IMG/VR virus record: IMGVR_UViG_3300025642_000006
Location: 1-52,125 of that record
Source: a virus
Lineage: Duplodnaviria; Caudoviricetes
Direction: 5' to 3' (one strand)
DNA length: 52,125 nucleotides
In this document: piece by piece, positions 15,593 to 37,700 of the stretch
Numbering within the stretch: position 1 is the first letter of the stretch
How the letters are laid out: each line of letters starts with the position of its first letter
Notes under the pieces: model-generated
Seen by the model: only the letters and a program-made list of their open reading frames with translations
What the model was told of the DNA's origin: nothing
Databases searched by the model: none
Program-made: the position numbers and the translations under genes

Positions 15593-15720
15593 GCAAAGAG
15601 GAGATCATAGCCCTTATTAACGCTAAAAAGCAGGATAAGAAATATGGGTGGGAACTGGACTGCTTAGAGCTTGGCAGACAACTAGAGAGACTAAAGAAAG
15701 CAGAAGAAGATAATGATTAG
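15580..15720 (+). CDS. Small hypothetical protein
   Basis: Bridges the NinG-like gene and TerL with overlapping ends. Confidence 0.45.
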   Translation: MGRLSKEEIIALINAKKQDKKYGWELDCLELGRQLERLKKAEEDND

Positions 15721-17563
15721 TTGGAAAGGCCCGAGCGACTGGACTTACTTCTTCTTCACAGAGGATGGGTGTCAGGAGCTTACATACACACAGTACCTTG
15801 GAGATTTTCCAGAAACGGGTGAGGAGTCGTATCTAATGAGATACGTCAAGGACAGGGTTAATAGAGAAACCTTGTTCTTGGGAAGAACCATACTAAGTTA
15901 TGCGAAGTCATGGTTGAAGAATAATAGGGCTATGCGTGAGCATTTTGTTACGCTAAAGAAAGAGCAGGAAGAGAATCCGCTACAGTTCTATTGTCCTAAT
16001 GGAAAAGGCCAGCTAGCGTTTCTGAATGATAAGAACTATACCATAAGCGGCATGGTAGCCCCGAATCGTACTGGGAAAAGTACTTGTGCGTGGATAGACC
16101 TGTTACTTGATATTATACCATGCGATCCTACGTGGAAACTCTTTACAGAACATGGGGTAAAGTTTAGGCCATTTGCTCCGCCATCAGATGGATACGTTAC
16201 AGCTGTAGCTACCTATGAGCTTGTAAACTTAAAGAGTACGATATGGCCTCAGATCATTCGCAAGTGGACTCCAGTAAAGTATCTGGAAGAATATGGTATA
16301 AGGGGTAAGGGCGGAAGGCCGATCAACTGGAAGGATAGCCCTAGAATACAAACCAAACATCTTAATTTATGGATGATGTACTACAGCATGAGCCAGACGC
16401 CGTATGAATCGCAGGCCATTGATAGGTTCATGTGGGATGAGCAACCGGAAGAGGCTAAGTTTGATGGAGCAGATGAGCGGTTAAGAACTCGTAATGGAAG
16501 GCATGTATTCAGTTTAACTCCTCATAAGGTAGAAGGACGCGCAGAGACCGGAGCCGGGACGTTTGTGCATGATATGGCACTAGGCAATACTACAAAGGGT
16601 CATTCGATCGAGTTCTACAACTGTTCGCTACTGGACGACGTTCCAGATTGGATTTATCCAGAAATACAGAAGAAGGCCGCATTTAGGAAGTGGGTAGAAG
16701 AACCGATTAAGAACCATGACGAGAAGTCACGCAAAGAAGGTCGAGCCAGGTTATACGGAGAATGGCATGAAACCGGTGGGTTGGTATATGATGAGTGGGA
16801 TAGGGCTATACACCTTGTGGACCCATTCGACATACCGCCTAACTGGACTAGATATAGAAGCATGGATTGGGGAAGAGTAAACCCTACTGCGTGTCTATAC
16901 TATGCAGTGAATGAAATAGGAGATGTATATTTCTATGATATGTATTATAGGCATAACGCCCTAGTATCGGAGAGTGCGTTAGATATAATTACGAAGTCAG
17001 GGAATGTTAGACAACGTAATGGACGAATATCAGACACTAGGAATAGTGAAATAGTCGAGTGCTACGAAGAGGTGCAGAAAACGAAGTTCGTTAAGACTGT
17101 ATTAGATAGCAGGACATTCGCCAGCAAGCAGCCTAATTCATCACTGACTATAGGGCGACTATATCAGCTTAATGGACTATATGTTCGGCCTGCATCTGGG
17201 GAAACAACAGAGGCTACAATTCCTATCGTGAAGGAATGGCTAAAGCCCGACTTTAATAAGATACATCCACATACCGGCAAACCCGGAAAGCCGAGGATTT
17301 TCTTTTTTAGAACGCTATCAGTATTTATTAAGCATATAGAGCATTATATTAACACTCCGGTAGTGCGTAAGGGTAAGGACGGGGGAACACGGTTAGCAGA
17401 GCGTCCTAGAGCGGTAGATGACCACGATATGGACGCCTTTAGGTATGCCATTATAGATCGTCCGCGATATATCGATGGATATAATTATGTTGACAGTTTA
17501 GACGAAGAGAGTAATACGCAAAATAATAAGAGGCCATTATATGACAAATACACCGGCTATTAA
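15713..17563 (+). CDS. terL: Terminase large subunit
   Basis: Walker A APNRTGKST, Walker B FMWDEQP, nuclease motifs MDWGRVNPTAC and DDHDMDAFRY. Confidence 0.93.
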   Translation: MISWKGPSDWTYFFFTEDGCQELTYTQYLGDFPETGEESYLMRYVKDRVNRETLFLGRTILSYAKSWLKNNRAMREHFVTLKKEQEENPLQFYCPNGKGQLAFLNDKNYTISGMVAPNRTGKSTCAWIDLLLDIIPCDPTWKLFTEHGVKFRPFAPPSDGYVTAVATYELVNLKSTIWPQIIRKWTPVKYLEEYGIRGKGGRPINWKDSPRIQTKHLNLWMMYYSMSQTPYESQAIDRFMWDEQPEEAKFDGADERLRTRNGRHVFSLTPHKVEGRAETGAGTFVHDMALGNTTKGHSIEFYNCSLLDDVPDWIYPEIQKKAAFRKWVEEPIKNHDEKSRKEGRARLYGEWHETGGLVYDEWDRAIHLVDPFDIPPNWTRYRSMDWGRVNPTACLYYAVNEIGDVYFYDMYYRHNALVSESALDIITKSGNVRQRNGRISDTRNSEIVECYEEVQKTKFVKTVLDSRTFASKQPNSSLTIGRLYQLNGLYVRPASGETTEATIPIVKEWLKPDFNKIHPHTGKPGKPRIFFFRTLSVFIKHIEHYINTPVVRKGKDGGTRLAERPRAVDDHDMDAFRYAIIDRPRYIDGYNYVDSLDEESNTQNNKRPLYDKYTGY

Positions 17564-17888
17564 GGAAATGCTGCCGCTTGGTAACTACGTTCTTGTAAAC
17601 AAGGCTATAACAGACCATCTGCGCGGAGCTAATGATGAGATATTGCTTTATATGCCAGAATCAGCAGTTCAAACTACAAGCTGGTGTGAAGTACTAGATG
17701 TAGGCCCGAAGTGTAAGTATATACGAAAAGAACATTGCGACGGGAAAACATTCGTCATTGTTCCTGAGTTAGATAATCGGATGGAAGTTGTTCGTATTGG
17801 AGATGGAAACGAATACCGCTTCGTTAAGGAAGATGTATTCTTAGACAAAGGCCCAAACCGAGGGTTTATTTATAGGAAGGAAGATTGA
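17541..17888 (+). CDS. GroES/Cpn10-like co-chaperonin
   Basis: MLPLGNYVLV...LLYMPESA.....EVLDVGP resembles the GroES PL.DRVLV...I.LP....G.V.AVG pattern. Confidence 0.65.
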   Translation: MTNTPAIKEMLPLGNYVLVNKAITDHLRGANDEILLYMPESAVQTTSWCEVLDVGPKCKYIRKEHCDGKTFVIVPELDNRMEVVRIGDGNEYRFVKEDVFLDKGPNRGFIYRKED

Positions 17889-20002
17889 TGAAGAAACAAA
17901 AAAGCAGCATTCAAAATCTGGCAATCAATAAAGACATTGTAACCAAGTTCGTTGATTCAGCAAATTCTGAATATAATCGTGTAAAATCTCTCCGAGAGCA
18001 GTTCGAGGACTCGTGGGAAGTTGCAGATTATATGTATAAGGCTGCACAAAATAGAACCATCAATGCCGCCGAGGTGTCTAAGGGCATGAATCTTAAAGAC
18101 GATCCTAGAGCAAATCTTGGTTCTCCCATGTTCTGGCGTCAAATATCCCAAATTGCTTCCGAGGGTGTGGCAGTAGAGAATAGCCGCGATGTTCCATTTA
18201 AGTTCAATCCTATCGTAAACCAGAACGTACAGTATTCGAGCGATCAGGGGCAGGCGGAGTCAGACCAGCTAAACTCGCTTGTTCGCTATACGATGAAGCA
18301 TGATAAGTACAAGGAGAAATCTACGTGCTTCTGGACCAGTTTGGCGAAGTATGGAAACATTCCGTATATGATTAACTGGGCATTAGAAGTTCGGACGATT
18401 GACGTTGAAGAGCCGGTCTATGAGGTCATAACCGATGAAGCAGGCAACGAAGTAACCAAAATGACCGGAAGAAAGCGCGTGTCTAAAGAGGTTGTCGTAA
18501 AGGCGCACCCCGAACAGCGCATGTTGAATATCTTTGATATATTCGCCGATCCATACATTGGCGACCTTCAAAGCCAGTCCTGTGTAATTGTTCCTTCTAT
18601 TGTTAATAAATCGGCCATTTATAACGAAGTACGAAAAGGAATCTATGACGAAGACGCTTACGATCTACTCAGCGATGACGATGCTTGGGATGGACAAGAA
18701 GGTGTTGCATTCCGTCAACGGTTGCTAGAAAACAATGATAAGACGTGGGAAGAGAGTAAAGGCATAGACCAATATCTAAAATGGGATATATGGTTTCGCG
18801 CACCTATTGAGAATGGCAAGTGGGATGAAAAAGCAGTGCCAGTGTTGTATTTTGCAACAATCATAGGGAATACACTCGATGGCGGCAAGGTGATGACCAT
18901 CATTCGGAATCCAGACCCAGATGATGAAATACCCATTCGTATGATTCATCTATACCCAGATGATGCCGACCTTCTTTATCATGTAGCACCGGCTGATATT
19001 ATGCGCTCTAATTACAGCGCAGAATGCTCCTTGAAGTGTCTTACCATAGATAACATGGCCTTAGCCTGTAGACCTCCTACAACGATTCTAGAGGGAGAAA
19101 TGTACGTTAAGCCGGATGATCTTAAATGGGATGCCTCTGGCCGGGTATGGACAATAATAAGAGAAGGCGCCATACAGCAGATGGCTATTAGGGATAATAC
19201 GCAGCAAACGGTTGGATTGCTGGAATACTTCAAGGCTGAATCTCAGTCCGCGCTTGGTACGGATAAGAATCGGCTTGGAGAGAGCTTTGGAGCTAGAACT
19301 AGCGCATTGGAAGCAAATAACATCTTCCAGCTATCCTCTCAGCCTTCATTGGCTTGGATTAACTACGTTCTACAGCAGAAAATAGGATTCTTTGCCCAAA
19401 AGACTAAAAGTCTTTGGAGAGCGTATGGAACACCTTCTGTAATCAATGCTATTACGGACATGCCATTGCTGCCCAATGTAAGCCCAACGGATATGATGGG
19501 CGACTTTGACACACAGATTGATATTGTGGATGAATATATCAATGATATGCAAGCGCAACAGATGCTTATGGGATTGGTAAGAATGGTTGCACAGGCTCCA
19601 CAGCTTCTTAAATCAGATACCCACGAAATAGATATTGGCGCATTGATGAAGGATATATTCTCTAAATCTGGTCTGAATGGAGATAAATACATTCGCGCAA
19701 GACAGGATGGAGATGCAGCTAGATGGGCAGAGATGGAAAATGTAGCCATGACGCAGAATGGACAGGCTACAGTGGTTAACGTAGATGATAACGATTATAT
19801 CCACCTTCGTATCCATAAGAGCTACAGGATGCGTTATAACGGCTTTGAGGAGCAATTCCCGAACCTATCCTACCTTGATGCTCATATTCTTGAACACGAG
19901 GCTATTATTCAGTCTGAATCAGGCGATGCAGCCGCGCAAGCCCCTAACGGAGAAGTTCCAGTTGGTGGGGAAATGGCAGGCGCTATGTCGGTGGCACAAT
20001 GA
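17888..20002 (+). CDS. Portal protein
   Basis: ~700 aa directly after TerL; P22/T7-like portal features (KYGN, DNM.LA..P, RTSA.E); C-terminal DN..IH...H motif. Confidence 0.85.
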   Translation: MKKQKSSIQNLAINKDIVTKFVDSANSEYNRVKSLREQFEDSWEVADYMYKAAQNRTINAAEVSKGMNLKDDPRANLGSPMFWRQISQIASEGVAVENSRDVPFKFNPIVNQNVQYSSDQGQAESDQLNSLVRYTMKHDKYKEKSTCFWTSLAKYGNIPYMINWALEVRTIDVEEPVYEVITDEAGNEVTKMTGRKRVSKEVVVKAHPEQRMLNIFDIFADPYIGDLQSQSCVIVPSIVNKSAIYNEVRKGIYDEDAYDLLSDDDAWDGQEGVAFRQRLLENNDKTWEESKGIDQYLKWDIWFRAPIENGKWDEKAVPVLYFATIIGNTLDGGKVMTIIRNPDPDDEIPIRMIHLYPDDADLLYHVAPADIMRSNYSAECSLKCLTIDNMALACRPPTTILEGEMYVKPDDLKWDASGRVWTIIREGAIQQMAIRDNTQQTVGLLEYFKAESQSALGTDKNRLGESFGARTSALEANNIFQLSSQPSLAWINYVLQQKIGFFAQKTKSLWRAYGTPSVINAITDMPLLPNVSPTDMMGDFDTQIDIVDEYINDMQAQQMLMGLVRMVAQAPQLLKSDTHEIDIGALMKDIFSKSGLNGDKYIRARQDGDAARWAEMENVAMTQNGQATVVNVDDNDYIHLRIHKSYRMRYNGFEEQFPNLSYLDAHILEHEAIIQSESGDAAAQAPNGEVPVGGEMAGAMSVAQ

Positions 20003-21878: not shown

Positions 21879-22859
21879 ATGGCTGATTTTTCTATGACGG
21901 CAAGCGCCAAGAGCGCTATTCAATATAGTGGAGCAGATACCCATACTCGTGAACTGTTCGTTGAGTCTTTGGCTCGCGGACTGGACATGGTATGGAAACG
22001 TGACTTCACGGACAAACCGAAACAAGGTATGCTTTATATGTCCGAAGGGACTGTGAAACAACCTACGGCTAAGTTCCAGACCTTCCGCACGATTGGCGGA
22101 GTTGTGGGGCAGAACCGTGATACGGATGATATGGACTTTGTGACCCGTGCCGATGGCTTTGGGTTTGAAGTTGTTACCTATCCGTACCGTCAGGGTATCA
22201 AGATCGAACGCGAGCTTGAGGAAACGGACGATGTTGGCGTTATTCGCGGAATGCAGTCTGATCTGGCCGAGAACGCGCTTATGACGCAGGAATATGCAGT
22301 TGCCGATGTATTCAATCGTTCAATTGCACCTACGTCTGCGCCATTGCTGGCTGATGATGGAATGTATCTGATTGATTCAGATCGTCCTAACGCTAATCCA
22401 GAAGCCGGAACGTGGTCGAATGAGGAATCTACCTCTGCGATTACGCCGACCTCCTTGGCTACTGCTCAACTCAACGCTCGTAATACGACTGATGAGAACG
22501 GGTTCCCATATCCTCGGAATATCGTTAAGCTCCTCATTCACAAGAATGACGAGAAAACGGTTGAAGAGATTATGAAGTCGGATAAGAATCCGTTGAATGC
22601 GAACAATACATACAACACTATGTATAATCGCTTCAAATGGGAAGTCTACGACTACCTGACGACTCGGAGTATCTTCTATATTATGGACGATCCCAAGTCG
22701 GAGAAGAACGAATTGCGCTTCTACTGGCGCAAAAAGCCTGAGTTCAAAACCTGGGTTGGCGACAATCCTGATGTTACGAGTCAGCGCGTTCGTTTCATCT
22801 TTGGTATTGGCTGTGGCTCGCCTCGCAAGGTATGGCGTGGTGGTCTCGTTACGGCGTAA
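21879..22859 (+). CDS. Major capsid protein (HK97 fold)
   Basis: 326 aa; Y.QGI.I.REL.E.DD, E...ADVFN, C-terminal RF.FG.G...WRG pattern; strong RBS. Confidence 0.85.
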   Translation: MADFSMTASAKSAIQYSGADTHTRELFVESLARGLDMVWKRDFTDKPKQGMLYMSEGTVKQPTAKFQTFRTIGGVVGQNRDTDDMDFVTRADGFGFEVVTYPYRQGIKIERELEETDDVGVIRGMQSDLAENALMTQEYAVADVFNRSIAPTSAPLLADDGMYLIDSDRPNANPEAGTWSNEESTSAITPTSLATAQLNARNTTDENGFPYPRNIVKLLIHKNDEKTVEEIMKSDKNPLNANNTYNTMYNRFKWEVYDYLTTRSIFYIMDDPKSEKNELRFYWRKKPEFKTWVGDNPDVTSQRVRFIFGIGCGSPRKVWRGGLVTA

Positions 22860-23654: not shown

Positions 23655-24008
23655 GTGATTCATACATATAAGTTGTATGAAAGGGTTCGAAGGGAGTTCG
23701 GCACACAGGCCGACTCCCAACCCTTTAGTGATGCCTTTTTCTCGGCACTATTAAGCATCTCGAATGATTTGGATAACAAAGCATTTGTTGAGATGGTTGC
23801 TCCAGAAACAATGGAAGTAAACATAGATATAGACGAGAAGTATTACAGCGCGATTTATAGAGGCTTAAAGTACTATATCAATAATGGGCCTCAGTGGAAT
23901 GTAGAGCAGAAGGGCGATTTGAGGGCTGAATACTTTATGGAACTGCACAGAGCGCAGTCTATGTATTACGCTGATAATGCACCCTCTCCTTATGATCTAT
24001 CTGATTAA
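23655..24008 (+). CDS. Head-tail adaptor-like protein
   Basis: 117-aa helical protein at the adaptor position. Confidence 0.5.
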   Translation: MIHTYKLYERVRREFGTQADSQPFSDAFFSALLSISNDLDNKAFVEMVAPETMEVNIDIDEKYYSAIYRGLKYYINNGPQWNVEQKGDLRAEYFMELHRAQSMYYADNAPSPYDLSD

Positions 24009-24027
24009 CCCATGTTAGGGGCATGAA

Positions 24028-26532
24028 ATGGCTGATCGCTTTGACGATAGACTTGACTTGGATACGCTTAGCATTTCTCGCGCTAAATTCGTAGAACACA
24101 AACTATCCGGGTATAGTGACGATGCTGACGCTGTCATTCTATTCTCTGTTGCGGAGTCGCTTTCGGAAGAAGCTCTTGCGTATCTGAAACAAAACCATTT
24201 CTCCTACACGGACGAAACGCTTGATTTCAGAAAACTTATCGGCACGTATTACACCAAAGAACTAAAATACGACCGCAAACTTGGCGGAGTTATTCAGGCC
24301 TTAGTCCGCAACTACGATCGTTCCAGAACGTATAAGTCTGTAGACGCCTACGGAAGCAACAAGTGGACCTACTCAGTAAACGGAGCGCTGATAGAGCCTA
24401 CCATTGACGTTGGCAAGGCTATACTTGAGGCAGCATTCCCTGAAATCGTAGATGCGAACGTAACACAGAGCGAGACAAGGTATGAACAGAAAATAGATGG
24501 TCTTTGGTATGGAGAGGTAAATCTTGTAGAGGTCGCTCAGGCCGTTGTTGATTACGAGTTCGTAACGGACTATGACCAGATAAAGATTAGCGCATCCGCA
24601 GGGTATGACACAACGACCTATTCATCCGGAACTGGACACACCCATACAAGCAGCTCAGGAAGAAGCACCAGTCGCAGCGCCAGCACCTCCAGCTCTTCCG
24701 GCACCAGCGAGGTAAACTCTGAGTCCAGTGGAACTGGTTCTTCGCAAGCATCAACGACGGGAACGTCAATATCTACCTCAAGCTCGTCCGGACATTCGTC
24801 AGAGTCCTCAAGCTCGTCGGGTCTCTCTTCGTCTGTATCAAGTTCAAGTGGAGTAACTAGCTCAACGTCTAGCGCATCGGGAAGGTCTTCGTCAGCGTAT
24901 CGTTCAAGCGGGACAAGCGCGTCAGACACAAGCAGCACCGGAACCACAAACTCAGACTCATCCTCAACCGGAACGTCCCAGACCAACACCTCTACATCCG
25001 GAACGTCAAGCTCTAGGTCCAGCTTCAGCGGAACAAATAATTCAAACGCAAGTTCAAACGGAACCACAATATCGAACTCCAGCTCAAGCGGGGAGTCTTC
25101 TTCGAGATCAAGCTCAAGCGGGGAGTCTACTAGATTTTCGCACTCTGCGTATAGCAGAAACGGTGCTTCAACAAGCTCAAGTACCGGAACGTCGGACGTC
25201 GATTCTACTTCTAGCGCAAACTCTTCTTCTACTGGAGAGAGCAGTTCAAGCAGCACCGACAATTCTACAGGAGCATCTTCCACAACCTCAAATTCTACTG
25301 GGACCAGCTCTAGCGCCTCCCAATCAGACGCAAGTACTGAGGGCACAAGCACTAGAAGCGACAACCCAAAATCTGTAAGAATCGTAACGAAAACTTATAG
25401 CTCTTCAGGAAGCTCGACGTCGCACAACATCTTCAGGAGTAAAGTCCCAGACTCTAGCAAAAGCGGTTCTTCTTCTTCTTCTTCGACTAAGTCATCCAAA
25501 AGCAAAAGCACATCGACAGAATCAATAGCCGGAACTTTCAGTTCGCATGAGACTGGCTCTACTCACGCCCGTAGAACGTCTTCGTCTACTGGGGCAAGTA
25601 CTGGAATAAGAAGTAGCACAAGTTATGGAAACGGAACAAGAAGTTCCACAAGAAATACAACTGGGTCAAGCACTTCTAGTACATCAAGAACAGGAGCATC
25701 TACTAGTTCTGGTACCAGAAGTACAACGTCGTCGTCAGCCGGCTCGTCAACTATATCAAATAGTGGAACGTCTTCGTCTAATTCCAGACGGTCGCAGAGT
25801 AGCGATGGAATGTCGCATAGATCTTCTAGTCAGACTGGAACAAGCTCAAGGACGGCCAGTTCATCCGGCACTGGATCAAGGACATCGAGTCAGTCCGGAA
25901 AGACGTCTAGCAAGTCAAGTAGGATGGGGTCGAGTTCATCTACTACGACGCAGAGTGGAGAGGGCTCAAGAAGTTCTGTACAGTCGGGGACCGGAGCTAG
26001 GAGATCTTCCGAGTCGGGAACCTCAAGCAGGAACACGAGCCAGACTGGAACATCAAATAGAAACTCTAGCCAGACCGGAACAAGTAATAGAAACTCAAGT
26101 CGTTCTGGAACCAATCATAGCGTCTCAAGTTCAACTGGTCATAGCACAAGAATCTCAAGCGAGACAGGGAGAAGTTATAGGAGCTCCAGCCAGACAGGTA
26201 CTAGCAATGTAAACTCCAGTAGAAGCGGAAGCAGTACAAGCGTAACAAACGCAGATACAACTAATACCGGAGGAGTTAGACATACTCTAAGCACCAGCAA
26301 AAACATCACGATCACAACAATTACTTGGAGGCTGTTTGTAAAGCACCACCTAACGTATGAAGCCGCAATGATAGAGGCATACGGAAGTGGCGGAGTTCAG
26401 GCCAGCGTTCAAGAGGTGACATTTGGGGTTGCAAAAATCTACAGGTCGTCTTATGCTAAGCTATACAAGGTTCATGCCAATAGGCAGACCTCTGATTACT
26501 TGAATCCGACTCTGGAGTCGCTTCCTGAATAA
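24028..26532 (+). CDS. Tail-position protein with a ~560-aa Ser/Thr/Gly tract (10-aa periodic)
   Basis: Globular N- and C-termini flank periodic xxxxxxxx(S/T)G units. Confidence 0.85.
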   Translation: MADRFDDRLDLDTLSISRAKFVEHKLSGYSDDADAVILFSVAESLSEEALAYLKQNHFSYTDETLDFRKLIGTYYTKELKYDRKLGGVIQALVRNYDRSRTYKSVDAYGSNKWTYSVNGALIEPTIDVGKAILEAAFPEIVDANVTQSETRYEQKIDGLWYGEVNLVEVAQAVVDYEFVTDYDQIKISASAGYDTTTYSSGTGHTHTSSSGRSTSRSASTSSSSGTSEVNSESSGTGSSQASTTGTSISTSSSSGHSSESSSSSGLSSSVSSSSGVTSSTSSASGRSSSAYRSSGTSASDTSSTGTTNSDSSSTGTSQTNTSTSGTSSSRSSFSGTNNSNASSNGTTISNSSSSGESSSRSSSSGESTRFSHSAYSRNGASTSSSTGTSDVDSTSSANSSSTGESSSSSTDNSTGASSTTSNSTGTSSSASQSDASTEGTSTRSDNPKSVRIVTKTYSSSGSSTSHNIFRSKVPDSSKSGSSSSSSTKSSKSKSTSTESIAGTFSSHETGSTHARRTSSSTGASTGIRSSTSYGNGTRSSTRNTTGSSTSSTSRTGASTSSGTRSTTSSSAGSSTISNSGTSSSNSRRSQSSDGMSHRSSSQTGTSSRTASSSGTGSRTSSQSGKTSSKSSRMGSSSSTTTQSGEGSRSSVQSGTGARRSSESGTSSRNTSQTGTSNRNSSQTGTSNRNSSRSGTNHSVSSSTGHSTRISSETGRSYRSSSQTGTSNVNSSRSGSSTSVTNADTTNTGGVRHTLSTSKNITITTITWRLFVKHHLTYEAAMIEAYGSGGVQASVQEVTFGVAKIYRSSYAKLYKVHANRQTSDYLNPTLESLPE

Positions 26533-26553
26533 CAACAAACAAGGGAGAACGGG

Positions 26554-27312
26554 ATGGATGTATTATACGTCGTAAGGAAATCCGACTGGAATCAGGAGTT
26601 GAAATACTCACTTAGAAGTGTTTGTGAGAACCTAAGTGGTACTGATAAGGTTGTTATTTGCGGACACCTTCCAAGATATATAGACCCTAGCATGGTTAAT
26701 CACATAGAGTGGATATTCCCGGAATACGACCCATCTAAAGAGAATGAACTGCTTATCAAGAAGCTGGTCTATGCAGTTAAAAACGGAGAACTTTCAGAAG
26801 ACTTCGTTTATATGTGTGATGATTTTTTGTTTATCAAAGAGGTTGAGCAGCAGGACATAAAGCCACTCGTGCTTGAGGACATGAACAAGATTTACCGTGG
26901 AAATGGCGATGGCAACAACTGGATCAAGATGCTTTGGAAGACATTTGACTGGGTGAAGGCTACCGGTGGATACGGATGGAACTGCGAGTCTCATACTCCA
27001 AAGATATTCAACAGAGACAAGTTCTTAGAGATGATGGAGCGTTATCGTCCTGCTTGGGAAAACTCAGTTCACATGTGCGATGCGATTTGTTATGAGACGG
27101 CCTATTTCAACTATGTTGGAATAGATAAGCAAGATGTTAGATATGGATACGGAGATCGGGTCGGTATACTTGAGTGGCATGCAGAGGAAGAGATAGTTAA
27201 TTCGTTAGCCGAACACGCAACCTATATGTATTACAACGATGCAGGGCTTTCAACAGCACTAAAGAACTGGATAGAACATAGATTTCCAAACAAGAGTAAA
27301 TATGAGTTATGA
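26554..27312 (+). CDS. Stealth-family-like (hexose-1-phosphate transferase/GT-A) protein
   Basis: MDVLYV, ELKYSLRSV..N, G..P..I, SEDFVYMCDDFLF, HTPK resemble Stealth CR1-CR3. Confidence 0.7.
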   Translation: MDVLYVVRKSDWNQELKYSLRSVCENLSGTDKVVICGHLPRYIDPSMVNHIEWIFPEYDPSKENELLIKKLVYAVKNGELSEDFVYMCDDFLFIKEVEQQDIKPLVLEDMNKIYRGNGDGNNWIKMLWKTFDWVKATGGYGWNCESHTPKIFNRDKFLEMMERYRPAWENSVHMCDAICYETAYFNYVGIDKQDVRYGYGDRVGILEWHAEEEIVNSLAEHATYMYYNDAGLSTALKNWIEHRFPNKSKYEL

Positions 27313-28232
27313 GTGATTCTGGATTTCAGTCAACTGGGCAAGACCTAAGCATTCCTTGGAGAGGGGATTCTGAGGAGGACTTGTCGATTCCAGAGCCTTC
27401 TATCAGTAACATTGTTATTGAAGAGGTAGGTCCAAGCGCATCTCGCCAAGAGCCAGAACCAGATGTTGATGATTCAATACTGCTAGAACGCAGAGATGAC
27501 TCAGAGAACGACGATGGTTCTTATCTAGATCAGGGCTATGAGGCTCCATACGAGATCATGGGCGTAGATGACTACGATATGGAAGACGAATACTTCTCGA
27601 TGCCTGACGAGCTTCCAGACGAAGAAGACGATATACTGGTTGATGATATAGATGCTCCAGATGCAGAAGAAGTTGTTGTTGACGATGCAGAGATGTTTGA
27701 GCCTGATGATGCTGAAGCAGCCCCGCCGGGAGCAGTTGTTCCAGAAGAAGACGACGAGCCATCTATGGATGATGAAGAGTCCGACTACGAGGATTTTCCG
27801 ATAGAGCCCGAAGAGATTGATAACGAAGTGGACGTAGAATCCGTAGAGAGCCCTACAGAAGACGAGGCCGTTGTTGTTTCGGACTCAGAACCTGCTGAAG
27901 AAGTAGACGAGGAAGATGATGCAGATATAGAGACCGTAGAGGGAGAGGATTACTCTGCCATAGACATTGAGCATAGACGCAGGGATCAGGATGTTACCGG
28001 AGTTCAGGATGAGCTTCCAGAAGAAGATGCGGAGGGCTCGTCGTTCAGCGGGGTTTATTGGTTCAAGGGGACGCGGTATGAGCTTTCTGGGACGGCCAAG
28101 GCGTATTGGTATCACAGCGAGGCAGCCAACGCTGGCTACTGGAGCGACGGCCCGATGCCTAGCCCGATGCCGGACATGCAATACTGGAGGGCAACGGCAG
28201 AATGCAACGCTGTAGAATATATTTCGTGCTGA
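27309..28232 (+). CDS. Hyper-acidic disordered protein with a small aromatic C-terminal domain
   Basis: ~240 aa dominated by D/E/P/V, then GVYWFKGTRY...YWYH...YWSDGP. Confidence 0.75.
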   Translation: MSDSGFQSTGQDLSIPWRGDSEEDLSIPEPSISNIVIEEVGPSASRQEPEPDVDDSILLERRDDSENDDGSYLDQGYEAPYEIMGVDDYDMEDEYFSMPDELPDEEDDILVDDIDAPDAEEVVVDDAEMFEPDDAEAAPPGAVVPEEDDEPSMDDEESDYEDFPIEPEEIDNEVDVESVESPTEDEAVVVSDSEPAEEVDEEDDADIETVEGEDYSAIDIEHRRRDQDVTGVQDELPEEDAEGSSFSGVYWFKGTRYELSGTAKAYWYHSEAANAGYWSDGPMPSPMPDMQYWRATAECNAVEYISC

Positions 28233-30118
28233 TTGCGCTGGCCCTGCTTCCAACGCTGGCAAGCGCCGAGGGCTGGACGGCTGCGGCGTGGGATTTCGAG
28301 CATACTTGGTTCGCAAGCAACGCGCTTGTTACAAGGCCGATGTACGGGTACAGCGTTGAGGACGTAATCACCCAGACAAGTTTCACGAACTCAATCCCCA
28401 GGCTCGTGACGAAGGGCTATACGTTTCGGGGATGGTCGCAATCAGAAATGGACCCGACGACGAGCGGCGTTGTCTCGGTGTGTTACACGAATGTTTACAC
28501 GAACAACCTGCACCCGTTCGATTGCAGGATTACGACCCGCGCCTATTCAACAAACTTTATTTACGCAACAAACGCTTATGTGTTCGGGTCGGTCACGGGA
28601 GGCGTGATTACCGTGCTGCACCGAACTGAAACCGGGATGTACGCAACGAACATCCTGATGCAGCTTGACACGCTTCGGGATTATGAAATGTACATGGCTA
28701 TCTGGGAGCGAGCAAGGGCCACAAAGAACCAGTCGGTTATAAATGCAGCGCTCTATCTAAAGTGGTCAAGTGGGCTATACAGGCTGAGAAAGGTAATGAG
28801 TTGGATCGGGTATTATTGTGCTTACTTCCTAGATGCAAGCTGGTCGTCGTCGACAGCATCTAACAATTTTGATTTTAGCTCATATTTCGCGAGCGAAACA
28901 AACTTCCCAATCTATGGCGGCGAATATGTCGGGTATAATTATGATATTCCAGCATGGAATACGACTAACCTTGCCGTTTCTATTGGCGCACCGTCGAATC
29001 TTTATGGGTCAATATGGATTTATTCGGCAAATGTTAATAAGCACAAAGCGCCGTCCGGGGAGGAGTACGGAAGAGCGGTCACGTCTGAGGTAAATATAAT
29101 CAAATATCCGGGAGTTGTTTATTTAAACGATCCGAATTTAATTATCACAAACATTGCCTACAGGTACGACGGGACAACGACAAACGTTTCTGGAACAAAC
29201 GGCCAGCTTGTGTCCTTTATTACGGCAAACACAAACTATATCATAGAGGGGTTTACCGAGTGGGACTATGGCTACAGGTATGTCACGTCAACACTGAGTA
29301 GGATGGTGCTTGTGAAGGATACCCCTGCGTGGAGTACGAACGGGACGCTTAAAAATTACGAATACAGCGAAGGCCCGCCGGACTCACAATATGACAGCTT
29401 CAAAAGTTTATTTGACGAGTCGGACCACGGGAACACATCGTACTGGGGCTCGTCATCGTCGGTAGGCACCTATGATGTATATTGTAAGAAGGATGTTTAT
29501 CCACATCATGATGACTTTTTCGGAAGTACGCCGTTTGGTGCATGCGCCCGCGCACTGGTTACGGAAAATAAAATAATTCATACGTCGTCGTATTCCCTAA
29601 CGAATAGCACGTTCGTGGGGTATGATGTAGACTTTTATATAGCCATGAAAATGCCAAGATATGTAACCAGCTCAGTGTCGTGTTTTATAACGACCGAGGC
29701 CACGCCGACCGGTCTTAGCTATGCCACCATTTCAAGCCTTCCCCTTCCTATCTCTGCTGAGCAGGCGGTCTACGAAACGGAAGCATATCGAGGATTTATA
29801 GGATCAAGCTCGGTTCTGGCAACAGGGACGGTGGCCTATTCCGAAATGATATATGGGATAAACATATTATCAACGCTGGTGTCAGACGGAGATATAAGCA
29901 TGTCAATGATGGTCGGGTATAATCCCTACCAAACAAACGACATTGATATAACAAAGTTTTCATACGAGGCGCTCCCGTCTGGTACAAAATCGCCATACAC
30001 GGATAATGCCGGAGACATCGGGCCGTGGTGGTGGGCTATATTCGGAAGAACGCGCCCGGAGTACACCCCTTACGTCATCCGCAACTACGCAGTAACCAAC
30101 GGATTCAAGTATTATTAA
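28202..30118 (+). CDS. Signal-peptide-bearing tail-module protein, Tyr/Thr/Asn-rich
   Basis: MQRCRIYFVLIALALLPTLASA-E signal peptide; 638 aa. Confidence 0.75.
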   Translation: MQRCRIYFVLIALALLPTLASAEGWTAAAWDFEHTWFASNALVTRPMYGYSVEDVITQTSFTNSIPRLVTKGYTFRGWSQSEMDPTTSGVVSVCYTNVYTNNLHPFDCRITTRAYSTNFIYATNAYVFGSVTGGVITVLHRTETGMYATNILMQLDTLRDYEMYMAIWERARATKNQSVINAALYLKWSSGLYRLRKVMSWIGYYCAYFLDASWSSSTASNNFDFSSYFASETNFPIYGGEYVGYNYDIPAWNTTNLAVSIGAPSNLYGSIWIYSANVNKHKAPSGEEYGRAVTSEVNIIKYPGVVYLNDPNLIITNIAYRYDGTTTNVSGTNGQLVSFITANTNYIIEGFTEWDYGYRYVTSTLSRMVLVKDTPAWSTNGTLKNYEYSEGPPDSQYDSFKSLFDESDHGNTSYWGSSSSVGTYDVYCKKDVYPHHDDFFGSTPFGACARALVTENKIIHTSSYSLTNSTFVGYDVDFYIAMKMPRYVTSSVSCFITTEATPTGLSYATISSLPLPISAEQAVYETEAYRGFIGSSSVLATGTVAYSEMIYGINILSTLVSDGDISMSMMVGYNPYQTNDIDITKFSYEALPSGTKSPYTDNAGDIGPWWWAIFGRTRPEYTPYVIRNYAVTNGFKYY

Positions 30119-31758: not shown

Positions 31759-34700
31759 ATGGCTGAGTCTTTGTATAGCGTAAATAAGCGCATCGAAGAA
31801 TACGATCCTTCCTTGTTAAGCCTTGGAGAAAGGCTTGCGCTAAACGATCCACAACTACGTCAAAGCGTTCAGGATACTGCTACTAGACAACAAGAGAAGC
31901 AGCAATACGAAGCCAAGAAGGATCAGTTCAGGGTAAAGGCTACGGGCGCATTCGATCCTCCAGAACCCACTACAGGGGATGTTATAGGCGATGTATTATC
32001 CGACTATAAAGACGGATTGGACTATGTACTAGGCAGTCCTACTAGAGACACCATTAAGGGTGCGCTAACTCTCTTTGGCGGTGATATAGACCGCAACAAG
32101 CCTATTGAAGAGTGGACCACACGCGATTACATGATTCAGGACATGGACGACCAGAATGCTCGTGCTAATGAATGGGCGCAGGGCAGTCGTAAACTAATCA
32201 TGGATGAATATGGTACAGGCGCAGGCGTAGCATGGGGTACTACGATGGCTGGATACCAGACAGCCGCCGCCATTGTAGGCACAATCTATGGTTCTAAAGC
32301 AATTCCTACAGGCGCAGCATTTACAGCACTTGGAGCAACAGGAAAGACTGGTGCAGCTTTAGCGAACATGACGCGAATTGGCGCATACAAGTTTGTTACT
32401 ACTCCGGGAACGATGGAAGAACGTGCTACGCAAGCGGCAAGATACGTCCTGTATGCTTTAACTCCATTTCTAAGCGGTCCGGCAGCTGGAAAGATCGCAG
32501 AACTAATCGGGTCTACAGCAAAGCAAGCCGATTATATGGCTAAGTTTATAGACTTTTTCGATAATACTGCTATTTCAGCAGGATTAGGTTTATATAGCGA
32601 AGTCGAATCTCAGGCGAAGCAAACAGCGCAGCAAGACGGCAAGCAATGGGAAAACCTCTCCACTGTGGAGAAGTTTTACTATAGGCTAGAAAAGATTACT
32701 CCAATTGCTCTTACAGACCTTATTTTCTCCTTATCCACAAAGGCGCAAAAACCACTATCACAAATTAAGGCCGAACTATCAGCCGATCCTGTTGGTGCGG
32801 AGTTAATCAAAGGCATAGACCTTAGCAAAGGTTCAGAGAAGCAGTTCCTTAAAGTCTTTCGTGGGGACTATGATTCCAAATCAGAAGTAGAATCCAAGAA
32901 GATACTAGCAGAGAACTTGGTACAGAAAAGCGGCGACACACTCAAAGCCGACGCTATGAACATTACTGGTGTTCTATCAGGGATCAAAGAGCTAGACACT
33001 CCTGACAAGCTCAGAACAGCCCTTGTTACGCTTCGCAACCTTGGTTTATCACAGGGAACAGCGCAAGAAGCATTAACCAAGAATGGCGATACACCTAGAG
33101 AAGGTGGAATTACAGACCGTGAGCGGTTCGTCATTGGAACCTTAATGCCAGAACGCATGGAAGCATTCGACAAGGATATTGAGAATAACAAGCGAGCCAA
33201 GCAGGAATATGAGCAGGATGAGGTTCTTACCGCTAGTGTGATGAAAGACCTAACGGCTGGTGGCACGATAGGCATGGAGAATGGACTATCCACACCAGAA
33301 GTAATGGCGAACATTGGCAAGCGAACAGGCGAAACTCCATCCGAAACATTGGCTAGGTCCAGCAAGTCTTTAGAGAGTGTAGCTCAAAGGGTATTAGAGA
33401 ACCGTCTGCTAGCGGCAAAACAAAATGGAATTGTATATACTTCTCAAGAAGCAGCGAAGGATATTGAAGTACTATTTAAAGAACTGGGATATGATGATGC
33501 CGATATTAAGGCATGGAAGAAAGACCCCGGCGACTTATTTAAAGTTGAAGCAGAACCAGCAAAGAGCATTTTCGATCAGCGCATAGCAGAAGCACAGGGA
33601 AAGGCCGAGTGGGGAAAATACGAGCAAGTCTTGCAGCAGAAGATTCTAGCCATTGAGGATATGGGCGAGAACGCTGACATGAAGGTTGCCATAGACGAGA
33701 CTAGGGACGACCTCTATCCTAGTGCTACAGAGGCCGAGAGAGCATCATTAGACCAATGGCACAAAGACGCTCAACGCATGGTACCTGTACAGGGTAAAGA
33801 AGGAATCGAACAGCGAGCCGTTAGGCTTAGTGATGAGCAAAAAGACTTCAATACCAAGGCGGATCAGGCATTTGACGAAGCGTGGGGAAATCTGGTCAGC
33901 AAGGGTGCGGCAGAAAAAGCAACGATGGGCGAAGTTGCCGACGAAGTCATTGAACGTATGGGAAGTAAATACGATCCTAGCGTAGTCCAACAGTGGCGCA
34001 ATGCTAACGTCCCTGTAGAAGGCCAGCAATCAGGATATGACAAGCGTATCCAGTCTGGTGAAAGAACGCAGAACATCCAGCAAGCCTATACGAAGTCTAT
34101 TCAAGATGGAACAATCCCGCTTACACGCGACGAGCGAATCAGTTTCATTGCAGACAAACTAGGCATTTCAAAGCAAGAAGCTACGCAAGCAGTATCAGAA
34201 TCAGAGCCTAAGCCGGAAGTGATTACGCCTAAAGAAGCGGACTATGCTAAGACATATACAGCAGAGCAGGCAAAGAATGCAGCAACAGCTAGAGCATTAG
34301 AACTATATTCAGAGCATATTAACGGAGCATTCAAGGATGAATCCGGTCCTAATCGAACAGATATTCTAGCGTCTATCATTGCAGAAGAGATGAAGGCTAA
34401 TCATCCTAATTTCAGCAAAGCAGACATAAAGGCCGCTATTACTGAAAAGATGCCGTGGAAGAGTTTTAAGCAATCTCCCGAGATGAAGCTATTGAAGATA
34501 ATGGAACAGAAGGAAGTTGCGCTAGAAGACGCAGAACGTAACGCAGCAACAGCGGAAGCCAAGGCTAAGGCTACTCAGGACAAGGCGGACTTTGAACTGG
34601 CAAGAGAATCACAGCGAATTATCTATTCAAAGCAGGCCACAAAAGAAGCTATTGCAATGGCCAATGAGAGATGGCCGTCCGCCTTCAACAATACAAAGAG

Positions 34701-37700
34701 AGCTGCCGCACTAGAGTATCTTGGCAAGATGTCGGAAGATTATGGGGCGAAACTTACTCCAAACAAAGAGGTTTTAGATAGTGCGTTTGCTGAAAAGAAA
34801 CTAACAGCCGCAGAAAAGGCCGATGCAGAGAATCGGGCCAATCAATTATATCAGAAGGCAGAAGAAACGTATGGACTTGCTAAGAAGGCTATGGAGGGTC
34901 AGGAAGATGCAGACAATCCAATAGCTATTGCAAGGAACGCAGTTATCGCAGCAAACAGGATAGATTATCCAAAAGGCAAGAAGGCCGATCTCATTGACTA
35001 TATTCGGGCCAAGAGCATAGACGAGATGTATAAGGCCGGAGATAATGTCATAGAAGCCGATTTTGGAGCAGCAGGAGGCGTTAAGCCATCCGAACCGGGT
35101 CTTAGGGTGGTTGGAGAACCCGACGCCGCACAGACGCTTAAAACGACTCCTAGCCCCACTACGGCAAAGGTAGATGCGAATGATAAAGCAAAGGTAGATG
35201 CGGCGGCAGCTAAGATAGCAGAAGAAGCAAAGACTTTGCCTAATGGTGGCACTTTGGCAGAGCTACGGGATAGACTCAAGAAGGCTGGAAGAACGAATGG
35301 CGAAAGCATAGGGGAAGCCAAAACGATTCAGGATAATGCAAGGAAGTCTCAGATAGATAAGGCGAAGGCCAACATTGATCCAGCATCTAAGCCTACTACA
35401 GCAATATGGAGAACTGGCAAGGGATATGGATATGAAGTAACCATTAAGTCGATTGAAAACGGAGTGGCTACGCTAGACAATGGCGCAAAGGTCAATGTAA
35501 GTGAGTTGTATAATAAGACACACGCGAATAGATCAATACCCAAATCTACAACCGGAATAGATAAGGATTTGATCGTAACTGGTAAGATTGAATACGCCCT
35601 TGACGTACTAGCCGATAAGATTGCAACATCCAAGAATCAGGGCGAAGCAGAAAAGGCCATCCTACGAAACGACGTTTTAGGCAAGATTGTTTATGGTAAG
35701 GCATACGATCTAAAGGTCGAGTTGTTGAAGCAGGAATTAAACGACTTCCTGAAAAACGATAAAGCAATTACAGACCCAAATAGAAACTCTATTGATTCCT
35801 ACAATAAGAACGACAATGCCGAGAGAGCAGAACTATCTAGGGCCATAGATCAGGTATTTGCTAATAAATTAACTGATCTTGCAAGAAAACGTCTTCCGTT
35901 GGAGGCAGAAGTAAGCACGCGCGAAACGATTCTATATTCTATATTTGGCAAAAGCTATATGCCCAGAAATGGCGACGAATTTAGCGAAAACCGCTCTCGT
36001 GAGTGGTATAATAAAAGAACCTTTGGTGGAAGCATGGGAACTAGGGTCGATACCGATCCGTCTTTAGCTCAAGCTCCAAAAATAGTCGAAGATGTTCAGA
36101 AAGAACTCATCCGGTTAATGAAGGGCGATAAAAACCTAATAGCCTTATTAAATACGTCCAAAAACGAAAAAGAGTTTATTGCTTCTGTAAATGAATATGT
36201 TGAGAAGAATCAAGTGGCACCCGGAGCGAAGGAAGCTAAGAACAAGGATGCGGTAGCACTAAAAGCATCAGTACAAAGCGCAGCGAAATTTCTAGAGGAG
36301 GTCGGCTCTGACAGGTTTCTTGAGATATTGATTGCTGCAAGAGATAATTATAATGCCAAGGGAGAGGTAGGCAAAGGCGACATTACTGCATCAGGTCTTA
36401 AAGAGCTTATTGGAGATAATCCTTTAGGCGTCAAGATTACCAATGCCCCAGAGAGTGCAGACAAAGACACCCTAGCATCCTATAGCAAAGACGGAATAGT
36501 CATCTACGCTGACCGCATGACTAGTCTAGCTCAAGCATGGCGTATCATGCTAGATGAAGTGAAGCATCGCGGGGTAGAGATATTGGGACGTGAAGGAAAG
36601 GGAAGCTGGCTCGATCGGATTATGAGCGGCTATGGCAAAGAACGGTGGACCGGGAAGCTGGAAGAAACGCTTCGTAAATACACCGACTGGGATGGTAAGC
36701 AGGATGCCAAAGAATATTTTGAGACTCTAAAAGAAGACAAGGGGCGGGTATTCGAGGAAATGGTAGTACATGCCAAGACGGAAATGCCTACAGCCTACCG
36801 TAAGATTATGTCCGACCTAAAACTTAGGGCAAGCAAGTTATTCCCCGGAGTGAAACTATCGGACAAAGACCTTCAAGCGCAGCTATGGAAAGCATTAGAA
36901 GCAGGCGTAAAGGATGAGGCATTTGAAGCAGCAGAAGGCATTCGTAGCGAAAAGGGGGCGTATGAGAAGAAGGAGCGTATCTTTGAAACAGCTACAACCA
37001 AATTTGGCAGCGTAAGCAAGGCCATTGAAGCCCGTGATGCAGCAGGCTACAAAGGTACTTGGATGAAGTTCGTAGCAGAGAATGCGCCAGCTAGGAATGC
37101 TCCTACTACCGAACAGCAAGGAAACCGCCTGTCGGACGTACTATTTAAAGACGTTATGACTCATAAACCACTAGCCGATTCAACGATTGACTCTATTCCG
37201 GGTCTACGTCAGGCAAGAGATGTTTTACATAGAGCTACAGGCGCAGGCGAAACACTTCCATCAGCCTTATCCCGAATGGGCAAGAAGATTAGCCAACGTG
37301 CAGCAGAAGACTTTAGCGCAGTAATTGGCGAGAACGCGCGTATTTATATGGGAGTGCAGAAGGTAAAGAACTCGAACCGTAAGTTGACCAAAAGCATAGG
37401 CTTGGACCGTATGGACAAGAATCTAGGCAAGGATGCGTCAGGACAGGTCATTAGAGGCACCAAGGCGATGAGATTGACGCTATCAGCCTATTCTCGCATG
37501 GGAAGGCTTAGCGAGGTCGTTAGAGCCTATCAGAACGCTTCTGGAGGCATAGACGCAAAAACCAAGGCAGCTAATGATGCTATAGCCAAGATTTCTACTC
37601 AAGAGGGAATCTCGGAAGCCCAATTAAAGAAGACTGTATATGCCTTCATGGGCAAGAAGGATACCGTAGATGGAAAGAGCGTCCTTCGCTATGACACCAA

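Follow-up and report, generated by a model that had tools for sequence, protein, structure and literature searches.

A two-armed serine-rich phage protein with mirrored glycine spacing as a candidate beta-hairpin stalk

Architecture of a serine-rich late protein

The virus record IMGVR_UViG_3300025642_000006 (Caudoviricetes) is a complete genome of 52,125 bp with direct terminal repeats, and it was analysed here at its full length (the window). Its late module contains, after the capsid gene, an open reading frame (ORF) on the plus strand (24028-26532; 834 residues plus stop, translated from 24028-26529) whose product carries two long arms rich in Ser, Thr and Gly. We propose that this protein folds into a long hairpin and serves as a stalk or fibre that bears a small tip, a virion appendage whose arms are possibly decorated, and we give this reading a probability of roughly 0.45. 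Pairing of the two arms in a hairpin, with all functional variants taken together, has somewhat better than even odds.

Six parts can be distinguished along the gene (24028-26532, plus strand), and the same architecture is common to the relatives P0002, P0003 and P0010 described below. An N-terminal anchor (residues 1-97; 24028-24318), which also occurs in a second class of long proteins with a different middle (class B), is followed by domain X (residues 98-193; 24319-24606), predicted by AlphaFold2 to be an alpha/beta domain whose long final strand runs into arm 1. Composition and residue parity delimit arm 1 (residues 194-445; 24607-25362), rich in Ser, Thr and Gly, and arm 2 (residues 480-757; 25465-26298), rich in Ser, Thr, Gly and Arg. 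Between them lies the tip (residues 446-479; 25363-25464), recognized from the composition profile and from reading of the sequence. The tip is the sole stretch between the end domains that is not rich in Ser, Thr, Gly and Asn, and it looks like a mini-hairpin of strand, Gly turn and strand around G461. The C-terminal domain (residues 758-834; 26299-26529) was delimited by alignment with P0002 and P0010 and by a low-confidence AlphaFold2 model; it comprises a strand (760-776), a helix (777-786) and a conserved Phe-Gly...Tyr-Arg stretch. The 565 residues from 196 to 760 include 232 Ser, 99 Thr and 58 Gly, and this part of the protein is thus a Ser/Thr-rich low-complexity region.

In the window, genes for the large terminase (15713-17563; PHROG matches), the portal (17885-20002; Pfam SU10_portal, E 7e-13) and the major capsid protein (21879-22859; weak capsid matches) precede this gene. 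Past the capsid gene come a 257-residue protein, a 117-residue protein, the 834-residue protein, a Stealth-like enzyme and an acidic 307-residue protein, and then large proteins of 638, 514, 2531, 1172, 526 and 1085 residues that match essentially nothing. The portal belongs to a class that bears the name of a short-tailed phage, and the phage is divergent and probably short-tailed.

Glycine spacing mirrored between the arms

Both arms contain a lattice of 15 Gly residues at an exact spacing of 10 residues. In arm 1 the lattice extends from G225 to G365 (24700-25122, plus strand) with the consensus G-T-S-S-S-N-S-S-S-S, and in arm 2 from G594 to G734 (25807-26229, plus strand) with the consensus G-T-S-S-R-N-S-S-Q-S/T. 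Starting from G211, the outbound Gly steps are 14, fourteen steps of 10, 14, 8, 16 and 12+10, while the inbound steps from G534 are 2+10+10, 6+10, 8, 14, fourteen steps of 10, and 14. These spacings had been counted by hand in the initial annotation, together with a mirror centre near KVPDSSKSG, and both held on re-translation: 20 Gly pairs satisfy i+j=959, which places the centre at 479.5, inside K472-G480 (nucleotides 25441-25467). Between G201 and G748, only the central Gly-Gly spacing (461 to 480, 19 residues) is odd, also as first described. Accordingly, Gly occupies odd positions in 26/26 cases in arm 1 (tested over residues 196-461), with Thr and Asn on the opposite parity, and even positions in 31/32 cases in arm 2. 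The return arm has 30 Lys+Arg versus 7 Asp+Glu, and the observation that most of its decamers have Arg at position 4 and Gln, Glu or Arg at position 8 was correct, with counts of 10/14 and 12/14 respectively.

The initial annotation had suggested computing the mirror correlation of the Gly positions. We did so against 5000 shuffles in which the decamer blocks were kept intact and the order of the other spacings was permuted within each arm; 20 mirror pairs were attained in 0.72% of them, whereas the direct (non-mirror) count of 18 pairs was attained in 40%.

Repeat divergence and strain variation

The 30-nucleotide (nt) units that encode the decamers have a mean pairwise identity of 48-49% and use all six Ser codons and four different Gly codons. 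Tandem Repeats Finder reported a 30-nt unit in just 2.7 copies, with 80% matches, and the only inverted DNA repeats are two short ones of 19 and 15 nt. Given the low identity of the units and the lack of any substantial tandem or inverted repeat, the lattice is a feature of the protein; since the repeats have diverged in DNA, their spacing has been maintained and was not recently copied.

Other origins of the pattern were considered and rejected. That only two short inverted repeats were found rules out a DNA palindrome as the source of the mirror, and the diverged units and the Tandem Repeats Finder result rule out recent tandem amplification or slippage. An in-register direct duplication of the whole arm is ruled out by the lack of an identity peak at offset 369; in the unit-by-unit comparison between arms, no direct register is preferred.

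Two metagenomic loci, L003 and L004, represent the same phage. L004 differs from the window by twelve substitutions in 10 codons (window 24901-25594), all of them non-synonymous and all in the Ser-rich arms; Gly codons are unchanged, the first 1 kb of the locus has no changes, and two of the substitutions are common to L003. Targeting by a diversity-generating retroelement was ruled out, as the variant sites are not adenine-specific. Over window positions 23906-28063, L003 shows 99.86% identity.

Relatives with the same anchor

An exhaustive HMMER search of 1.84 billion representatives with the first 200 residues as query returned 10 proteins. One is a piece of the window protein itself, three are built in the same way (P0002, 1071 residues; P0010, 678 residues; P0003, a fragment of 287 residues) and six belong to class B. 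With 3 relatives among 1.84 billion representatives, the Ser-rich family is very rare.

Class B comprises P0004-P0009 (1092-1573 residues) and syntenic genes in loci L001 and L005. What these proteins have in common with the window protein is the first ~100 residues only: HMMER matches to P0004-P0009 reach query positions 1-101 at most, and the anchor is 42% identical to L001:7734- over 106 aligned positions (query 1-106; E 3e-24). Their middle, of about 900-1300 residues, is non-repetitive and all-beta. Because the anchor is common to both classes and the middles differ, we describe the family as an N-terminal anchor joined to an exchangeable long middle.

Other searches added no further relatives. 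A word-indexed search found no homologue of residues 1-200 or 745-834 of the window protein, and residues 320-440 of P0002 matched only themselves. IMG/VR scans with the N-terminal 200 residues and with a domain-X alignment returned nothing, and a scan of GTDB genomes found no homologue. The metagenome scan matched only the same phage (L003, L004), and the ESM Atlas, queried with P0005 and with residues 1-200, gave no usable match. A full-text literature search did not find a serine-rich two-armed phage protein of this kind described. In P0002, domain X (window residues 98-198) occurs four times in tandem, at residues ~100-437; three copies are nearly identical, which indicates a recent internal duplication of this putative base domain.

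Matched arms in the full-length homologues

Three full-length proteins could be compared (the window protein, P0002 and P0010), P0003 being a fragment. For P0002, 18 Gly pairs are obtained at the best mirror sum, 1444, compared with 14 for the next-best sum and 12 for the best direct offset. Mirror counts of 18 occurred in 0.04% of P0002 shuffles, while the direct count occurred in 73% and is unexceptional.

The mirror register can also be compared with conserved residues at the two ends, namely the final residue of the Ala-Gly-Tyr/Phe motif with which the N-terminal part closes and the Trp in the initial strand of the C-terminal domain. Their positions sum to 1444 in P0002, identical to the Gly mirror sum, and to 960 in the window protein, where the Gly mirror sum is 959. 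The midpoints between these anchor residues are 480 (window protein), 722 (P0002) and 409 (P0010), and the stretches low in Ser, Thr, Gly and Asn, at about 438-482, 674-752 and 368-450, each contain the midpoint of their protein (3/3). Arm length ranges from about 160 residues in P0010 to about 280. As the tip is central in all three proteins despite this variation, the arms have changed length in a matched way. Matched gain or loss in both arms was the check set beforehand for the hairpin, and the arms are matched in 3/3 full-length proteins.

P0010 lacks the decamer lattice, and 10- or 20-residue periodicity is absent from it. Asn nevertheless lies at odd positions in 26/26 and 25/26 cases in the two arms and Ser at even positions in 46/60 and 58/69, so that period 2 is unbroken over about 165 residues per arm and one face is almost purely Ser and Gly. 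Extended strands whose two faces differ should show such a two-residue periodicity. A parity bias is also present in the window protein and in P0002, where Gly, Arg and Gln favour one parity and Thr, Asn, Asp and Glu the other.

The decamer lattice could alternatively reflect two independent beta-solenoid or beta-roll rods in series around the middle module, with for example two decamers per turn, in which case the equal length of the arms would be coincidental or a relic of duplication. Such rods would account for the fact that both arrays number exactly 14 decamers and are flanked alike (14 | 14x10 | 14), and for a decamer consensus that has the same orientation in both arms; some solenoid proteins characteristically contain repeats rich in Thr and Ser. 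However, P0010 has the same architecture with period 2 only, and the irregular spacings (8, 16, 12, 22, 6, 4, 2) are all even and mirrored rather than repeated in the same order. Neither a preferred direct register of unit identity nor DNA similarity between the arms beyond short matches was found, and AlphaFold2, which is usually able to recognize solenoids, predicts none here. We consider serial rods improbable.

Taken together, the matched arms and the mirror support antiparallel beta arms mounted on a base of the N- and C-terminal domains. The giant hairpin of the initial annotation therefore stands in part: antiparallel beta arms gain support from the P0002 mirror, the anchor register, the central tip and the P0010 periodicity, but AlphaFold2 did not confirm them.

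Structure prediction and fold searches

AlphaFold2, run on an alignment of 4 sequences, gave a mean predicted local distance difference test score (pLDDT) of 36.4. Domain X was modelled at pLDDT 68-84 over residues 100-170, and two 17-residue strands (173-189 and 760-776) bracket the arms. A prediction of the complex between domain X (96-200) and the C-terminal domain (745-834) scored 0.02, which speaks neither for nor against a common base. For P0005, of class B, the mean pLDDT was 51.8 and the middle had no usable model.

Fold comparison of domain X with VIA-align gave Z up to 5.2, with some matches to phage neck proteins. The weak matches of domain X and of class B residues 101-192 include phage neck and baseplate proteins (Z 4.1-6.1), and the best Z overall was up to 6.8, all inside the range that the tool states as noise (Z under 8). 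The recurrence of neck and baseplate chains among these weak matches is a lead only. Foldseek found no match in the PDB at E up to 0.001, a search of PDB sequences with the family profile was empty at E up to 1, and gp11 of phage phi29 was not among the 50 fold matches listed. Against PHROGs and Pfam at E up to 0.01 the 834-residue protein matched 0 families, and thus no tail-tube, tape-measure, adaptor or nozzle family; NCBIfam returned one row at chance level for the first 200 residues.

Several observations weigh against a paired hairpin. The mirror has limits: the 20 pairs stand, but 18/58 Gly of residues 196-760 have no partner, including all those between 426 and 533, and the middle 110 residues are unmirrored. 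Register 949 yields 19 pairs, close to the 20 at 959, and the direct offset 369 yields 18, near the mirror count, because the unit 14 | 14x10 | 14 is itself palindromic; in the window protein alone, mirror and direct arrangements are distinguished only by the steps of 8, 16 and 22. To reconcile the sums 959 and 960, a one-residue bulge is needed in the window protein, for which the Gly-Gly pair at 748-749 is a plausible site. Within the lattices, though not in the irregular parts, the parity bias is a trivial consequence of an even repeat length. The homologues number only three, one of them a fragment, and have a common ancestry, so that the comparisons among them are not fully independent. 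Between the Ser-rich class and class B, the C-terminal domains have no significant similarity (hhalign E 0.31), and therefore we do not claim their homology. A tightly packed core is hard to reconcile with the Arg and Gln residues that the return arm places on its Gly face. Finally, for residues 191-757 AlphaFold2 predicts no secondary structure, at a pLDDT of about 30, a low score that a disordered low-complexity region would also receive. With AlphaFold2 and the fold searches unconfirming, the paired-arm model depends on sequence statistics in four related proteins.

Disorder of this kind would suit mucin-like arms, that is, flexible, heavily glycosylated or phosphoglycosylated linkers that flank a central module without pairing, the Gly lattice being a repeat unit or an enzyme recognition motif. 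A composition of 232 Ser and 99 Thr in 565 residues, the structureless AlphaFold2 arms and strain-level arm changes that are all non-synonymous are consistent with it. So is the Stealth-like gene 21 nt downstream, which is absent from two relatives that lack Ser-rich arms (L001, L005). Phage-encoded glycosylation of mycobacteriophage virion proteins is reported in PMC11256854, which cites Freeman et al. 2023. Unpaired linkers, however, leave unexplained the mirrored irregular spacings in two homologues, the match of the mirror register to conserved anchors, the even-only spacings and the runs of 160 residues of unbroken period 2 in P0010. Strain variation also spares the Gly positions, and the Stealth assignment is under the Pfam cut-off, with an association that amounts to 1 locus with the gene versus 2 without. 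Mucin-like arms thus appear rather unlikely, and we prefer the hairpin stalk or fibre.

A proposed stalk or fibre

In the hairpin stalk, the N-terminal anchor, domain X and the C-terminal domain would together form a base. The chain would run out along arm 1 (about 250 residues), turn at the tip and return along arm 2 (about 280 residues), with both arms as extended beta strands in antiparallel pairing and Gly opposite Gly. The resulting ribbon would have two polar faces, one of Gly and Ser with the Arg and Gln of the return arm, and the other of Thr, Asn, Asp/Glu and Ser. Additional copies probably pack onto one another through the small-residue face, and the product would be a thin stalk of several strands with the tip some 60-90 nm away from the base. 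Stalk length would be set by arm length, and so the arms would change only in matched steps of two residues. The exposed Ser-rich surface may be decorated by the adjacent Stealth-like enzyme.

We infer that this appendage is located on the virion. There are signs that it is exposed, namely a conserved anchor with an exchanged middle, changes in L004 that are confined to the arms and spare Gly, and the adjoining Stealth-like gene.

The initial annotation had proposed a different use of the same hairpin, in which an oligomer builds a very long beta-barrel, a tail tube or envelope-spanning DNA conduit whose length is set by the number of paired repeats; six or twelve copies would form a ring via their end domains. 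The supported hairpin topology can be read in this way, and the matched-arm comparison, which was able to refute a tube, did not do so. The arms are polar on either face, which a barrel with water inside and outside would require. The gene follows the capsid gene, in the place where the portal adaptor and nozzle of many short-tailed phages are encoded, and the weak matches of domain X and class B residues 101-192 (Z 4.1-6.1) include phage neck and baseplate proteins. phi29 gp11 follows the same plan, with a 24-strand barrel of hairpins of two 180-Å strands (PMC6542822).

A number of observations nevertheless run against the tube. No tail-tube, adaptor, nozzle or collar family was found in Pfam, PHROGs, NCBIfam (first 200 residues) or PDB sequences, and the fold matches fall inside the noise range of the tool. 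L001, L005 and P0004-P0009 have the same anchor with a non-repetitive middle, and the gene occupies the same position as the class B genes in L001 and L005; such an exchange would not be expected of an essential tube whose geometry is fixed. The arms also hold all of the strain-level amino-acid variation, and the next gene downstream is the Stealth-like one. Known tail tubes have electronegative lumens, in contrast to the Arg ladder on the Gly face of the return arm, and the nearly pure Ser/Gly face of P0010 is easier to reconcile with tight packing than with a lumen of 3 nm. At 60-90 nm, the barrel would exceed the 18-nm stem of gp11 in length by a factor of 3 to 5.

The function as tail tube or trans-envelope conduit thus found no support: no tube, ring or tape-measure family was recovered, AlphaFold2 gives the arms no structure, and anchor-sharing relatives exchange the middle. 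A tube had also been offered as the reason why no tail-tube or tape-measure gene is recognizable, for which there is a simpler cause. Unrecognized tail genes are expected here anyway because nearly all late proteins match nothing (0 families were found for the proteins of 638, 514, 2531, 1172 and 526 residues) and the portal is of the short-tailed-phage type. We regard a ring-based tube or conduit as very improbable; its most explicit form, a single all-polar beta-barrel of 60-90 nm made by ring-forming copies with 270-residue hairpins and serving as tail tube or conduit without a tape measure, is a shade less probable again. If true, no longer beta-barrel would be known. Phages would then have, next to stacked rings and tape measures, a third means of making a tail of defined size, in which the number of paired decamers encodes length and a tape measure is unneeded. 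The points against a tube, together with the precedent of an out-and-back needle in T4 gp37, lead us to favour a stalk or fibre.

Comparison with known systems

In phi29 gp11, according to PMC6542822, the N-terminal 96 and C-terminal 32 residues make up one domain, residues 103-258 form two antiparallel strands of 180 Å, and twelve copies assemble into a 24-strand barrel; the initial annotation had cited gp11 as a tail barrel of 24 strands from beta-hairpins, and this source bears it out. On this description, the window protein would resemble gp11 in its end parts that serve as a base, its central antiparallel hairpin and its short loop at the far end, all of them predicted here. It would likewise be a virion protein, as proposed here, and its phage has a portal or neck of the short-tail type. 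Unlike gp11, it has predicted strands of about 270 residues rather than about 70 (180 Å), an alpha/beta base in the AlphaFold2 model rather than an all-alpha one, no sequence match to any PDB chain, and arms that are nearly pure Ser/Thr/Gly with a decamer lattice. The estimate of up to ~90 nm for ~270 residues per strand holds at the full rise of an extended strand, about 3.3 Å per residue, whereas the axial rise of gp11 gives roughly 60-70 nm. If the arms pair, this would be, to our knowledge, by far the longest beta-hairpin described, with about 270 residues per strand versus about 70 in gp11.

T4 gp37 forms a six-stranded antiparallel needle with a head domain at the far end, as described in PMC9659904 (citing Bartual et al. 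2010). From that description, the gp37 chain runs out and back, its distal head is formed by the middle of the segment and its needle is a thin structure of several chains; this may be compared with the central tip (3/3) and the small-residue face found here, a face that would suit a narrow core. No sequence similarity to gp37 was detected in the PDB profile search. The needle of gp37 measures only some 15-20 nm, much less than proposed here, and iron sites of the His-x-His type, arranged in a row, hold it together. No such row is present in the window protein, which has one His-x-His at 204-206 (the base of arm 1) and 11 His in residues 196-760 with no periodic pattern. The protein is best described as a very rare new variant of this out-and-back plan of beta appendages.

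Serine-rich repeat glycoproteins and the glycosylated Ser/Thr tails of mycobacteriophage virion proteins resemble the locus in combining Ser/Thr-rich repeats of a surface protein with a neighbouring candidate sugar-transferring gene. The repeats and tails of both groups are viewed as disordered stretches that carry glycans. In the window protein, by contrast, period 2, mirrored spacing and matched arms suggest an ordered strand pair. The enzyme differs too, being Stealth-like (predicted sugar-phosphate transfer) and not a classical glycosyltransferase. Glycosylation of phage virions as such is documented in PMC11256854.

The polar faces of the proposed stalk may also be compared with silk. In silk-type antiparallel sheets, every other residue is small (Gly or Ser) and lies on the same face of the extended strand, a layout that permits very close face-to-face packing. 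Unlike silk, the window protein has no Gly-Ala dipeptide repeat, and we propose a single hairpin with base and tip domains.

If the arms pair, a hairpin made almost wholly of Ser, Thr and Gly and lacking a hydrophobic core would bear on the stability of polar 'serine-zipper' beta structures, on how phages control appendage length by matched changes in two arms, and on the use of such a surface as a platform for sugar-phosphate decoration by a phage Stealth-like enzyme. More generally, the case suggests that some low-complexity regions dismissed as disordered by predictors and pipelines carry hidden long-range order, detectable from spacing symmetry and two-residue periodicity alone.

Neighbouring genes

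The 117-residue gene directly upstream (23655-24008, plus strand) has a homologue in the same place in L001 (51% identity) and L005 (41%), and is thus present at 3/3 loci. Its product is likely to be a structural partner of the N-terminal anchor, judging from this conservation.

Downstream by 21 nt lies the gene for the Stealth-like protein (26554-27312, plus strand; 252 residues), a putative hexose-1-phosphate transferase identified with Pfam and PHROGs. It matches Pfam Stealth_CR2 at E 1.2e-8 with 35.5 bits, under the 39.4-bit cut-off, CR3 weakly (E 0.031) and phrog_7999 at E 1.6e-21, and it aligns weakly to the catalytic domain of N-acetylglucosamine-1-phosphotransferase, conserved motifs included. 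No homologue was found in the class B loci L001 and L005, and in IMG/VR no Stealth homologue was found next to Ser-rich virion genes. Sugar-phosphate decoration of the Ser-rich surface by this putative enzyme, with 1 locus that has the gene and 2 that do not, is a lead and no more. Among GenBank phages, similar proteins occur only in 31 mycobacteriophage records, at 24-32% identity, as unannotated genes near the left genome end.

The acidic 307-residue protein (27309-28232) is conserved in L001 only over its last ~70 residues (67% identity). Its long Asp/Glu-rich tract is specific to this phage, like the Ser/Arg-rich arms and the Stealth-like gene. Beyond the nearly identical part of L003, the segment L003:4159-6233 differs from window 28064-30087: the C-terminal half of the 307-residue protein is 78% identical, and the next protein, of 638 residues, is 23% identical. 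Window 28064-30087 looks like a cassette swapped between otherwise identical phages, perhaps a host-range module.

The 2531-residue ORF (31759-39354) has no Pfam family at E up to 0.01, and at the corresponding position L005 carries a long ORF of more than 972 residues that is open at the contig end. The 2531-residue product may be an internal or ejection protein.

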